A DNA stretch of 64,000 nucleotides from Thermoanaerobaculia bacterium (GCA_963816185.1 CAWFJJ010000028.1:256001-320000); one strand, 5' to 3'. Shown: positions 12,446-20,097, counted from the stretch's first letter. Program-made: numbers and translations. The notes: generated from the letters alone by a model not told the origin.

Positions 12446-12592
12446 ATGGTCACGAAAAAGGGGAAGACGACGAAGAAGATGAAGGATCTGGGCGCCAGGA
12501 AGGTGACGGCCAAGCAAGCCGGGAAGGTCAAAGGAGGCATAGGCGCAGGGGGCGGCGGCGGCTCAGGGAAAGTGGGTTGGATCAAGGTCTGA
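12446..12592 (+). CDS. GG-leader peptide 0 (divergent leader), tail IGAGGGGGSGKVGWIKV
   Basis: RBS GAAAGGA; leader MVTKKGKTTKKMKDLGARKVTAKQAGKVKGG. Confidence 0.7.
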   Translation: MVTKKGKTTKKMKDLGARKVTAKQAGKVKGGIGAGGGGGSGKVGWIKV

Positions 12593-12633
12593 CGAGCGCC
12601 ACTTGCCGGAAAGGCCGCCGGGATCGTCGGTCG

Positions 12634-12918
12634 ATGAAGACAGGCCGCCGTAGGAGCAGGTCTTCGCCGGGGGTCGTCCCACTCAGGGACCTCGTCCCCC
12701 GAAACGACCCCAAGGGGGGCATGGCACAGAAGACGGTCTTCGGCGAAGGTCCCCCGGTTCTCGAGACAGAGGAGAAGCAGCCTTTCACGACGTTCGGGCC
12801 GAACGAAGGCGGAAGCCGGGTCACGGCCAGAACAGGGAGAAAGGAGAAGCGAAATGAAAAAGGCCACGAAGAATTCCCCGAAGGTCTCTCACAAGAAGGC
12901 GAAGGACCTCGAGGTTAA
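12634..12918 (+). CDS. Array-associated small protein A (PLRDLVPRNDPKGG)
   Basis: Paralog at 19215..19439 in an equivalent position. Confidence 0.55.
   Translation: MKTGRRRSRSSPGVVPLRDLVPRNDPKGGMAQKTVFGEGPPVLETEEKQPFTTFGPNEGGSRVTARTGRKEKRNEKGHEEFPEGLSQEGEGPRG
12792..12833 (+). repeat. 42-nt stem-loop element, copy 1
   Basis: GTTCGGGCCG-AACGAA-GGCGGAAGCC-GGGTCA-CGGCCAGAAC just upstream of the RBS. Confidence 0.85.
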
Positions 12919-12997
12919 GCCTGCCAAGGGCGGCACGGTTCGTGGAGGGCTCGGAGGGAGCCACGGAGACGACACCCCAATAGAAAGTCGTCGTTGA
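12854..12997 (+). CDS. GG-leader peptide 1, tail LGGSHGDDTPIESRR
   Basis: Translated by hand: MKKATKNSPKVSHKKAKDLEVKPAKGGTVRGG; AAGGAG RBS. Confidence 0.85.
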   Translation: MKKATKNSPKVSHKKAKDLEVKPAKGGTVRGGLGGSHGDDTPIESRR

Positions 12998-13102
12998 CGC
13001 GCGAAGACCTGTATCACTCGTAGCAAGGTTACCGTTGCTGTCGATGGCTTTTGGAAGGCAGTAGCCTGCTCGCGGCCAAAACAGGAAGTAAGGAGACACG
13101 AC

Positions 13103-13234
13103 ATGAAGACCAAGAAGAAGAGCGCCCCGAAGGCTTCCCACAGGAAGGCGGTCAGAAATCTCGACATCAAGCCCGCCAAGGGTGGGACGGTGCGTGGAGG
13201 AAGGAAAGCAGGCGAAAAACCGCTGGAGTTTTGA
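13103..13234 (+). CDS. GG-leader peptide 2, tail RKAGEKPLEF
   Basis: MKTKKKSAPKASHRKAVRNLDIKPAKGGTVRGG; AAGGAG RBS. Confidence 0.85.
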   Translation: MKTKKKSAPKASHRKAVRNLDIKPAKGGTVRGGRKAGEKPLEF

Positions 13235-13336
13235 GTATCAGCGACAATTGAAGTCGCCGCTGCCGGCGAGGTCGTTTCACGCCGTAGAAGGGCTCGCCCC
13301 TCAGGCAGCACATTCCTGCGGCAGCTTTCATCGGAT

Positions 13337-13378
13337 GTTCCGGCCGAACGAAGGCAGAAGCCGGGTCACGACCGAAAC
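13337..13378 (+). repeat. 42-nt stem-loop element, copy 2
   Basis: GTTCCGGCCGAACGAAGGCAGAAGCCGGGTCACGACCGAAAC. Confidence 0.85.
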
Positions 13379-13397
13379 AAGAAAGAGGAGAAACGAC

Positions 13398-13529
13398 ATG
13401 AAGAAGACCACGAAGAAGAGCCCCTCGAAGGCCTCTCACAAGAAGACGGTCAAGGACCTCGACGTCAAGCCCGCCAAGGGTGGGACCGTTCGTGGGGGCT
13501 TCCCGACGCCATGGAGAAGCAAGCCCTAA
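13398..13529 (+). CDS. GG-leader peptide 3, tail FPTPWRSKP
   Basis: MKKTTKKSPSKASHKKTVKDLDVKPAKGGTVRGG; GAGGAG RBS. Confidence 0.85.
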   Translation: MKKTTKKSPSKASHKKTVKDLDVKPAKGGTVRGGFPTPWRSKP

Positions 13530-13570
13530 GGCCGCTCGAAATGACGCGGCATCCAGAAAGGAGCAGCGAC

Positions 13571-13663
13571 ATGAAGAAGGCTACGAAGAAAACCCCCTCG
13601 AAAGCCTCTCAGAAGAAGGCGGTCAAGGACTTCGACGTCAAGCCCAGCAAAGGGGGAACGGTT
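13571..13663 (+). pseudogene. GG-leader peptide 4, cut by the IS just before RGG
   Basis: MKKATKKTPSKASQKKAVKDFDVKPSKGGTV followed directly by the IS left end. Confidence 0.85.
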
Positions 13664-13713
13664 TGAATCGCCCCGGCATTTCCGGAGGCTCCAACACTTG
13701 AGAGGATGGAGCG

Positions 13714-14034
13714 ATGGGAAGACGAGGCAGATACCCGGCGGAGGTCAAGGAGCGGGCCGTGCGGCTGGTCTTCGAGCAGCAGTCGGAGCACGGCTCGCAG
13801 TGGGCGACGATCAGCTCGATCGCGGGCAAGATGGGCTGCACGCCCGAGACGCTGCGGAGCTGGGTCAGGCAGGCCGAGCGAGACAGCGGCGCACGGCCCG
13901 GACTGACGACGTCAGAGCGTGAGCGGCTCAAGGAGCTCGAGCGTGAGGTCCGCGAGTTGCGGCGAGCCAACGAGATTCTGAAGAAGGCCTCGGCGTATTT
14001 TGCGCAGGCGGAGCTCGACCGCCGAGCGAAGTGA
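13714..14034 (+). CDS. IS3 transposase OrfA
   Basis: HTH followed by [26 protein letters not shown]. Confidence 0.95.
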
Positions 14035-18687: not shown

Positions 18688-18939
18688 ATGAGTTCGACGC
18701 GAACCCCCTCATGCTTCTTCTGCGGCCGAACCTCGCCTTTTTCGTTCTTCATGGGGGCGTCGCGGATAGACTGTCCGACCTGCGGCTCGTACGATGTGAC
18801 TGTCGGCGTGAGCAGCCGGATCCGTTCCAACCCGCAGATGAAGGCGTTGGTCCGCGCGGAGATCCGCAGGCAACTTGACAGCGGAGTCGCGAGGCCGCGC
18901 ATCAACCTCGACGACATCAAGGCACTCAAGGGGCGTTGA
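18688..18939 (+). CDS. Small Zn-ribbon protein, paralog B
   Basis: CFFCGR...IDCPTCG...RPRINLDDIKALKGR. Confidence 0.7.
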   Translation: MSSTRTPSCFFCGRTSPFSFFMGASRIDCPTCGSYDVTVGVSSRIRSNPQMKALVRAEIRRQLDSGVARPRINLDDIKALKGR

Positions 18940-19064
18940 CCTCGGCTGTCGGCCTGCCTCAGGTCCCCTCGCCTGTCACAAGCACCCGCGCCTCCCCCGG
19001 CGCGGCCTCCGCCTCGGGGAGCGACCTCCCCGGCTCGATACGCTCGACGACGCCGAGGCCCGCG

Positions 19065-19123
19065 ACGGCGCCGCCTCGGAATGAGCCACTCGAAACGATG
19101 CAGCATCGCATCGAAACGAGACA
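19065..19123 (+). promoter_or_regulatory. Putative upstream activator sequence of array 2
   Basis: Copy of 12228-12286. Confidence 0.6.
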
Positions 19124-19174
19124 GGTCGGTCCGAGATAGGCGCCGCTGAGGGCTTGAGACCGCTTCTCAGCCTA

Positions 19175-19189
19175 CGGCATGGCGTTTGC
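19175..19189 (+). promoter_or_regulatory. Sigma-54 -24/-12 promoter of array 2
   Basis: CGGCATG-GCGT-TTGC, preceded by the same CGCTTCTCAGCCTA as in array 1. Confidence 0.7.
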
Positions 19190-19214
19190 CTTCCGTTCAG
19201 CCGGCCATAGTGCG

Positions 19215-19439
19215 ATGAACACACGCCGCCGCAGGACAAAGCCGCCGCCGGGGGTCGTCCCCCTCAGGGACCTCGTCCCCCGGAACGACCCCAAGGGGGG
19301 CTCGGCCGGGAAGACGGTTTTCGGCGAGCGTCCCCTGGTCACCGAGACAGAGGAAAAGCAGCACATTCAGGATGTTCCGGTCGAACGAAGGCGGAAGCCG
19401 GGTCACGGCCGAAACAGCACGAAAGGAGAAACGACATGA
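19215..19439 (+). CDS. Array-associated small protein B (PLRDLVPRNDPKGG)
   Basis: Paralog of 12634..12918; its stop overlaps the ATG of peptide 7 (ATGA). Confidence 0.55.
   Translation: MNTRRRRTKPPPGVVPLRDLVPRNDPKGGSAGKTVFGERPLVTETEEKQHIQDVPVERRRKPGHGRNSTKGETT
19374..19415 (+). repeat. 42-nt stem-loop element, copy 4
   Basis: GTTCCGGTCGAACGAAGGCGGAAGCCGGGTCACGGCCGAAAC. Confidence 0.85.
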
Positions 19440-19597
19440 AGACCACGAAGAAAACCCCCTCGAAGCCCGCTCACAAGAGGGCGATCAAGGACCTTGACGT
19501 CAAGTCCGTCAAGGGCCGCACGGTTCGTGGGGGAATCGTGAAACTTGTCGACGCGGACTCTCCCAAACTCCACGATACGCCCGTGAAGGGCGGGTAA
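19436..19597 (+). CDS. GG-leader peptide 7, tail IVKLVDADSPKLHDTPVKGG
   Basis: MKTTKKTPSKPAHKRAIKDLDVKSVKGRTVRGG; AAGGAG RBS. Confidence 0.85.
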   Translation: MKTTKKTPSKPAHKRAIKDLDVKSVKGRTVRGGIVKLVDADSPKLHDTPVKGG

Positions 19598-19713
19598 GGA
19601 CTGAAGCAACTCGAACACCACACCGCTTCCCGCGAGCGCAAACATGGTCCGGCGCCGGAGGTCTAGAGCGGCTCGTCGGGTCACGCCCGAAACAGGAAGT
19701 AAGGAGACACGAC

Positions 19714-19866
19714 ATGAAAAAGACCACGAAGAAAAGCCCCTCGAAGGTTTCTCACAAGAAGGCGGCCAAGGACCTCGCCGTCAATCCCGCCAAGGGCAGG
19801 ACGGTCCGTGGAGGCCTTGGAAGCGTCGAGGGAGAGTCGATTCGCAAAGGTCACAGTCCAGATTGA
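19714..19866 (+). CDS. GG-leader peptide 8, tail LGSVEGESIRKGHSPD
   Basis: MKKTTKKSPSKVSHKKAAKDLAVNPAKGRTVRGG; AAGGAG RBS. Confidence 0.85.
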   Translation: MKKTTKKSPSKVSHKKAAKDLAVNPAKGRTVRGGLGSVEGESIRKGHSPD

Positions 19867-19894
19867 CTACGGGAGGAATTAGCCCTCTCAGGAC

Positions 19895-19936
19895 GTTCCG
19901 GCCGAACGAAGGCAGAAGCCGGGTCACGACCGAAAC
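19895..19936 (+). repeat. 42-nt stem-loop element, copy 5
   Basis: GTTCCGGCCGAACGAAGGCAGAAGCCGGGTCACGACCGAAAC. Confidence 0.85.
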
Positions 19937-19956
19937 GGGAAGAAAGGAGAAAAGCC

Positions 19957-20097
19957 ATGAAGAAGACCACGAAGAAGACCGTCTCGAAGGCTTCTCACAA
20001 GAAGGGAGTCAAGGACCTCGACGTCAAGCCCGTCAAGGGCGGGTCGGTCCGTGGAGGGAGCTTGTACCCGGGTTACCCCAAGGACAAAACGGAATAG
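19957..20097 (+). CDS. GG-leader peptide 9, tail SLYPGYPKDKTE
   Basis: MKKTTKKTVSKASHKKGVKDLDVKPVKGGSVRGG; AAGGAG RBS. Confidence 0.85.
   Translation: MKKTTKKTVSKASHKKGVKDLDVKPVKGGSVRGGSLYPGYPKDKTE

Follow-up and report, generated by a model that had tools for sequence, protein, structure and literature searches.

Why would a soil-type bacterium keep arrays of small precursor genes in which one export-type leader is followed each time by a different piece of Hcp, the tube protein of type VI secretion systems (T6SS)? The question is raised by a 64,000-nt stretch of DNA from a Thermoanaerobaculia bacterium (GCA_963816185.1 CAWFJJ010000028.1; contig C28:256001-320000), hereafter the window, which has ten small open reading frames (ORFs), p0 to p9, between positions 12446 and 20097, all on the plus strand. 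A first-pass annotation, made from the sequence alone, had described a leader common to all of these peptides with variable tails behind it and had assigned seven of the nine intact tails to distinct Hcp motifs. Its ORF coordinates, strand, and tail sequences were correct, and alignment confirmed the division into leader and tail. The precursors very probably represent a double-glycine family of exported peptides with Hcp-derived cores. To the fuller reading, that they constitute a multi-locus, accessory double-glycine system of the bacteriocin or RiPP (ribosomally made peptide with post-translational modifications) kind that exports mimics of Hcp segments, we give about an even chance.

Precursor genes and the origin of their tails

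The leader of the window peptides is about 34 residues long, lysine-rich, and ends in VRGG (VKGG in p0). In the alignment, G33 and G34 are almost invariant and divergence begins immediately after them, which is the pattern of a double-glycine leader. At the DNA level, the units are direct repeats of 105 to 177 nt that are 60 to 88% identical, and each precursor has a separate ribosome-binding site and start codon. The first, p0 (12446-12592; 12446-12589 without the stop codon, the second range having the same meaning below), is a divergent member; its tail, IGAGGGGGSGKVGWIKV, corresponds to the Hcp glycine loop, and since its reading frame is open from 12338, the choice of start codon is uncertain. 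Downstream lie p1 (12854-12997; 12854-12994; tail LGGSHGDDTPIESRR), p2 (13103-13234; 13103-13231; RKAGEKPLEF), p3 (13398-13529; 13398-13526; FPTPWRSKP), and p4 (13571-13663), which an IS3-family insertion truncates after codon 31. They are followed by p5 (15027-15158; 15027-15155; VSEIIITKRIDR) and p6 (15307-15444; 15307-15441; LWRAGGGPIKY) and then by p7 (19436-19597; 19436-19594; IVKLVDADSPKLHDTPVKGG), p8 (19714-19866; 19714-19863; LGSVEGESIRKGHSPD), and p9 (19957-20097; 19957-20094; SLYPGYPKDKTE). Searched singly against Pfam and NCBIfam, the window peptides matched neither Hcp nor any other family, and the leader (eight window peptides and two relatives) had no NCBIfam family at an E value of ≤10. 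By these searches, the leader is a new family without a curated model in Pfam or NCBIfam.

To place the tails on Hcp, we used a profile of 120 homologues of the genome's own Hcp (162 aa, L001:1423-1908, the best of five PF05638 matches) and set each of the nine intact tails against 1000 shuffles of its own sequence. Five of the nine beat at least 996 of the shuffles, in five distinct regions of Hcp. No shuffle reached the score of p0 (6.2 bits, profile positions 42-53) or p2 (positions 88-97), and 4 of 1000 reached that of p1 (positions 113-124), p7 (positions 60-77), or p8 (positions 12-23). All five lie in the regions that the first-pass annotation had named, and its expectation that the tails would rise above shuffled controls was borne out to this extent; its remaining two assignments hold less well. 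The tail of p6 is marginal (14 of 1000 shuffles), and the profile places it on the glycine loop and not at the C-terminus, near which its best pairwise match, GGPIK, is found. The tail of p5 is not significant alone (147 of 1000 shuffles reach its score) and has Hcp support only because it closely resembles longer scoring relatives, such as P0098 (10.8 bits, positions 51-72).

The same signal is seen across the family. A profile search with the ten window peptides returned 138 relatives at E ≤ 10; the 120 relatives listed are 31 to 71 aa long and come mostly from short metagenome contigs, and 7 of them are annotated "type VI secretion component Hcp" by JGI. When HMMER was run exhaustively against 1.84 billion representatives, 58 of the 60 matches were 43 to 98 aa long; the leader is therefore found on no full-length Hcp. 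Among the 148 family tails of at least six residues, 59 exceeded the 99th percentile of 7400 shuffled tails, compared with 2 of the 148 tails when reversed, and 25 outscored every one of the shuffles, compared with none of the reversed tails. The matches extend over profile positions 4-161, and the Hcp signal is not confined to this window. When 150 peptides were scanned against all of Pfam at E ≤ 0.01, PF05638 was the sole family matched, by 11 of them (best E, 7.4e-5).

These matches are local. No peptide reaches the PF05638 gathering score of 23.5 bits (P0128 scores 21.2 bits over positions 14-42), and a tail covers at most about 29 of the 129 to 161 profile positions. By sequence, the peptides are thus not members of the PF05638 domain family, and what they carry is local motifs of that family, in register; the tails cannot form the Hcp fold. 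On this evidence the tails are derived from Hcp, and those of the whole family together cover it end to end, while the roughly 26 peptides of this one genome reach from the Hcp N-terminal strand to the C-terminal GWD..NKK motif. By inspection, some metagenome tails resemble two Hcp motifs fused out of their native order (DTPMES with MKIKL and IAKIQLSYE with KWIEL), and many nonscoring tails finish in a KWIE/KWIQ-type motif that resembles the second Hcp strand.

Substitution patterns indicate that the leader evolves as coding sequence and that the genes are translated. Over 23 leader copies in this genome, the ratio of nonsynonymous to synonymous differences (pN/pS) was 0.447, with values below 1 in 249 of 253 pairs, compared with 1.12 to 1.14 in the shifted frames, and third codon positions had twice the variation of first and second positions. 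Tails appear to be under purifying selection as well, with Hcp motifs retained in many independent tail types. In 17 pairs of distinct proteins whose tails have the same length and an identity of 80% or more, the tails averaged 0.94 identity and the leaders 0.69, against a background leader identity of 0.64, although these pairs were picked by tail similarity and describe a pattern rather than provide an unbiased test. Eight pairs have identical tails, and in seven of these the leaders are only 57 to 87% identical; the p2 tail, for example, is identical in P0008, whose leader is 73% identical. The same tail types also stand on different contigs behind diverged leaders: the p8 type occurs again in P0031 and P0078 and the p9 type in P0029, and a tail related to that of p3, FPTPWKNKV, occurs in metagenomes and on contig C6.

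Some 26 leader peptides are encoded in the genome, distributed over five loci, namely, the window on C28, two places on C6 (14.5-22.2 kb and about 73.5 kb), C12, and C29. In a sample of the class, the leader model detected the family in 1 of 301 genomes, which was this genome, and in none of the 16 congeners in that sample. A scan of genome contigs yielded one further genome locus, in a Thermoanaerobaculia metagenome-assembled genome (MAG) of the same genus (locus L006; genome G332), and a scan of metagenome contigs yielded at least one contig, of 1551 nt. Given its occurrence in 1 of 301 class genomes and the IS3 copies that bracket p5 to p9, the system appears to be accessory and mobile. Hcp itself is present in 48 of 61 genomes of the bacterial family, and therefore the co-occurrence of arrays with a T6SS is uninformative. 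At 5.09 Mb and 4.8 Mb, the two array-bearing genomes rank near the top in size among the listed members of the genus.

Operon structure and gene neighbourhood

The first peptide gene of each operon is preceded by a conserved element of about 220 nt, which encodes a 74-aa protein, designated X, with an Arg/Lys-rich N-terminus and an invariant internal DPKGG. The window has two copies, both on the plus strand. X_B (19215-19439) is intact, with a TGA stop codon that overlaps the p7 start codon (ATGA); in X_A (12634-12918), an indel shifts the C-terminal frame, and X_A therefore runs into p1. The pN/pS of X is 0.44 in frame compared with 1.0 and 2.0 out of frame, and several of its 15 homologues (73 to 109 aa) share short contigs with Hcp-type peptides. 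The roughly 60 nt that precede each peptide start are conserved also in places that lack X. In an Rfam scan of window positions 11500-21000 at E ≤ 1, no RNA family fell on this conserved stretch; the only match to reach its family score was the ALIL frameshift pseudoknot of the first IS3 copy (13992-14108; RF01497, 95 bits), and the two other matches (E values of 0.66 and 0.97) were far under their gathering scores. A candidate sigma-54 promoter, GGCAT-N5-TTGC (19176-19190, plus strand), lies 39 nt upstream of X_B. The motif GGCAY-N5-TTGC precedes X_B and the X copy at the homologous place in L009, the remaining copies being degenerate, and the promoter is tentative because a good motif stands upstream of only these two X copies. 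There are 57 sigma-54-type motifs in the genome, and a sigma-54 activator gene adjoins the C6 array.

The likely export gene is also at C6. About 3 kb upstream of that array is a 1120-aa ORF with two cyclic nucleotide (cNMP)-binding domains, a Peptidase_C39 domain, and ABC transporter domains, whose best NCBIfam match is the NHLP-type bacteriocin exporter TIGR03796 (526.8 bits; cut-off, 853.3). The Cys and His context of its C39 domain is visible, and we take these two residues to be catalytic. Near it are a weakly HlyD-like ORF and an ORF with weak similarity to TIGR04500, a peptide-maturation family (28 bits; cut-off, 180), and the gene order around the exporter is syntenic in the L006 MAG. 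The genome has three GT41 glycosyltransferase genes, each encoding TPR and GT41 regions, and all three are at peptide loci; two of them stand directly downstream of a peptide gene, an arrangement that is repeated in L006. Among the ORFs scanned near the arrays, there was no gene for a cyclodehydratase, a lanthionine synthetase, or a radical SAM enzyme. In its gene content, which also includes receptor-type Ser/Thr kinases and the conserved X, the neighbourhood points to a double-glycine export system of the bacteriocin/RiPP-like type.

Between p6 and X_B, the window encodes a Ser/Thr protein kinase of 910 aa (15747-18479, plus strand) with an N-terminal kinase domain (Pkinase, 171 bits), one hydrophobic stretch, and a C-terminal TPR region that matches many TPR families; the protein has weak matches to TIGR04510 and TIGR03903, two models from peptide-modification systems. 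At the C29 locus (G000:C29:455871-456724), the peptide gene (L010:15871-16014; tail AGGTQLEYRKGKI) is located 225 nt upstream of a divergent Hcp-like gene (161 aa, L010:16239-16724; PF05638, 66.8 bits). A Ser/Thr kinase gene is found about 1 kb downstream of this Hcp-like gene.

Mobile elements are a further feature of the window. IS3 copy 1 (13641-14972, plus strand; orfA 13714-14034, orfB 14031-14945) is the element that truncates p4, and copy 2 (21308-22650, minus strand) is inverted relative to it, with proteins that are 98 to 100% identical. A serine recombinase (resolvase) gene (20360-20977, plus strand; Resolvase, 131.5 bits, with HTH_7) adjoins the array that X_B opens. The layout is like that of a composite transposon, the two IS3 copies together bracketing p5, p6, the kinase gene, X_B, p7 to p9, and the resolvase gene. 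The kinase gene has on either side of it a copy of a 193-nt direct repeat (85% identity; 15503-15695 and 18474-18666), which encodes a small Cys-rich ORF with CxxC and CPTPGC motifs. A family of ORFs of about 128 aa (37 to 75% identical), without a significant Pfam family, adjoins the peptide loci of the window (10784-11167 and 18556-18936) and of contig C12 (L009:1973-2620 and 16654-16938). Finally, a 901-aa ORF (6399-9101) has good coding composition and no Pfam or NCBIfam match, and its last 50 residues are similar to the ORF that follows it (9105-9479).

What the peptides may do

Under the reading that we give an even chance, each precursor would have two parts, the conserved cationic leader (about 34 aa, with VRGG at its end) and a core of 6 to 33 aa that is a conserved piece of Hcp. 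Operons would open with the constant 74-aa X, whose stop overlaps the next start, perhaps from a sigma-54 promoter. The C39 domain of the cNMP-binding ABC exporter would recognize the leader, cut after GG, and export the core, and the TPR-GT41 glycosyltransferases whose genes stand immediately downstream of peptide genes may modify some of the precursors. Once released, the peptides would mimic Hcp segments and compete for the contacts of those segments, most likely in the T6SS of neighbours. A tentative extension, possible but well short of probable in our judgment, is an anti-T6SS fragment library, in which exported and partly glycosylated copies of foreign Hcp segments jam tube folding, ring formation, or stacking in attackers, or blind the Hcp sensing of neighbours, while the producer's own diverged Hcp is spared.

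The producer's own Hcp is relevant to this idea. The five PF05638 matches of the genome are all on contigs C25, C29, and C24; there is none anywhere on contig C28, in keeping with the first-pass statement that the window has no hcp gene. Two tandem hcp genes stand with TssC on C25 and represent the genome's own T6SS. Two of the other matches are partial, one in a 105-aa ORF that covers only profile positions 46-129 (G000:C29:328771-329013) and one in a 281-aa ORF that covers positions 7-57 (G000:C24:391646-391795). As a match to the summed Hcp-like tails, the own Hcp ranked only 94th of 120, and in a regression on profile score the seven own-lineage Hcps had residual ranks of 1 to 28 of 120 from the bottom. 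This deficit amounts to only about 1 to 2 standard deviations, within a biased sample of 120 Hcps of unassigned origin. It fits the view that the tails copy generic Hcp more than the Hcp of the producer lineage; descent from an older hcp of more typical sequence could account for the mismatch equally well. The export context and the resemblance to generic Hcp are compatible with mimicry of non-self Hcp and do not prove it.

The small size of this deficit is one of several points that weigh against exported mimicry. By profile, 89 of the 148 tails (about 60%) are not significantly Hcp-like, the tails of p3 and p9 in the window have no match to the Hcp profile, and some tails are merely 6 to 9 aa long, which is short for a specific inhibitor. 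The window is without an exporter or a GT41 gene, these being on contigs C6 and C12, and the peptide loci of the window, C12, and C29 have no C39 exporter. The NCBIfam matches of the exporter and the maturation-type gene are all below the curated cut-offs. We infer cleavage, export, and glycosylation from neighbouring genes only, and that context comprises five loci of one genome and one congeneric genome. Moreover, Hcp assembles in the cytoplasm of the attacker, where an exported peptide must still arrive in order to reach what we suppose to be its target.

Other explanations share part of this evidence. The Hcp-like peptides might be ligands of the co-located membrane Ser/Thr kinases, whose TPR region would lie outside the cytoplasm; Hcp debris from T6SS attack would be a natural cue, and the peptides would prime or warn kin. 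Such kinases occur about 2 kb or less from peptide genes at four of the five loci (the window, C12, C6 at about 73 kb, and C29), compared with a genome average of about 1 per 60 kb (84 Pkinase-domain matches in 5.09 Mb), the window kinase combines a kinase domain, a single hydrophobic stretch, and TPR with its weak similarity to regulators of peptide-modification systems, and C39 transporters are known to export short peptides that can serve as pheromones. However, kinases of this architecture are very common in the genome, where many ORFs of about 900 aa are like that of the window, and some 26 peptides tiling a whole protein far exceed what signalling needs, which leaves a signal or alarm function rather unlikely in our view. 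We are similarly doubtful that the link with Hcp is one of ancestry only, with cores recruited from hcp fragments and mature, possibly glycosylated peptides that are ordinary bacteriocins or have some role unrelated to Hcp and T6SS. The large share of tails without significant Hcp likeness and the tight linkage of the GT41 genes would agree with this, other RiPP families have leaders that arose from unrelated proteins, and the non-Hcp tails are not enriched for pieces of other proteins from the genome's own T6SS region (1 of 81 beat all 40 of its shuffles, likewise 1 of 81 for a control region). Yet the Hcp motifs are held by selection, as the identical tails behind diverged leaders illustrate; the tails are neither cationic nor amphipathic like typical membrane-active bacteriocins; and one peptide gene adjoins an Hcp-like gene.

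The remaining alternatives fit the data less well. That the peptides stay in the cell and tune the genome's own T6SS, with phosphorylation or glycosylation of a Ser/Thr-rich leader, is conceivable in a genome that has a T6SS and in which kinase and GT41 genes adjoin the peptide genes, but it is improbable: the own-lineage Hcp is matched worse than other Hcps, the genome has a C39 exporter, the leader ends in GG, the arrays are unlinked to the T6SS cluster, and Hcp is far more widespread (48 of 61 family genomes) than the arrays (1 of 301 class genomes). A spacer array at the peptide level, an analogy raised in the first-pass annotation, would take up new tails out of foreign hcp genes and serve as an adaptive memory; the annotation had suggested comparing tail DNA with the host's hcp genes. 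In that comparison, tail DNA matched nothing in the whole genome, hcp genes included, except itself. The layout of repeat plus variable segment is superficially similar to a CRISPR array, in which repeats are near identical and spacers match target DNA. Here, we rejected the spacer-array reading, because the repeats are only 60 to 88% identical, tail types are conserved across contigs, and there is no DNA match to hcp; each unit also has its own ribosome-binding site and start, and no acquisition machinery was seen. We consider it hardly credible. The same very low standing applies to functionless debris of decayed hcp or chance ORFs, which a region rich in mobile elements (IS3 and resolvase) might be thought to favour. 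The selection signal refutes it, since the leader pN/pS is low in frame only and tail types are conserved, and more than 100 relatives are called as genes in independent metagenomes.

Comparison with known systems

The peptide arrays share features with several known systems. Like the C39/double-glycine peptides (class II bacteriocins and the NHLP/Nif11 precursors with exporters of the TIGR03796 type), the peptides have a constant GG-ended leader, a variable core, and tandem precursors, with a C39 exporter beside the largest array. In contrast to these peptides, the leader is strongly cationic and has no Pfam or NCBIfam model, the exporter scores under the TIGR03796 cut-off, and the cores are pieces of a structural protein. 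Prochlorosins provide many precursors with one leader and hypervariable cores, and the present family is similar in having about two dozen precursors in a single genome, one conserved leader, and unrelated-looking cores. Unlike in prochlorosins, these cores are not free-form, a large share of them being conserved Hcp fragments, and no LanM-type enzyme was seen. The glycocins, which are glycosylated bacteriocins with GG leaders, are alike in having a glycosyltransferase gene beside GG-leader precursors and a peptidase-ABC exporter. The SunS-type glycocin enzyme belongs to the GT2 family, whereas the transferase here is TPR plus GT41 and glycosylation is predicted. With Hcp/TssD (PF05638) itself, the tails share conserved motifs in register, but they are fragments only and score below the gathering threshold.

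A full-text literature search, judged from titles and abstract openings, found no description of natural Hcp-fragment peptides. The nearest concept is a designed biomimetic peptide that is reported to inhibit T6SS assembly; it is synthetic and aimed at the baseplate wedge (PMC8406304). The common idea is that a copy of a T6SS component blocks assembly, whereas the peptides described here are natural, genome-encoded, and Hcp-copying, with an activity that is hypothetical. Should the peptides act on Hcp, natural small inhibitors or decoys of the T6SS tube would be known for the first time and could be a template for anti-T6SS peptide tools. An anti-T6SS library would represent a new principle of defence, in which a ribosomal peptide library delivers mimics of protein fragments. 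Sensing of the peptides by the co-located kinases would instead reveal how bacteria could perceive T6SS attack via Hcp fragments. Either way, the new leader family, its link to TPR-GT41, and its exporter with cNMP-binding domains can be tested directly. Overall, the known one-leader libraries have free-form cores, whereas here selection maintains a large share of the cores as conserved segments of a single structural protein, one that belongs to a bacterial weapon.

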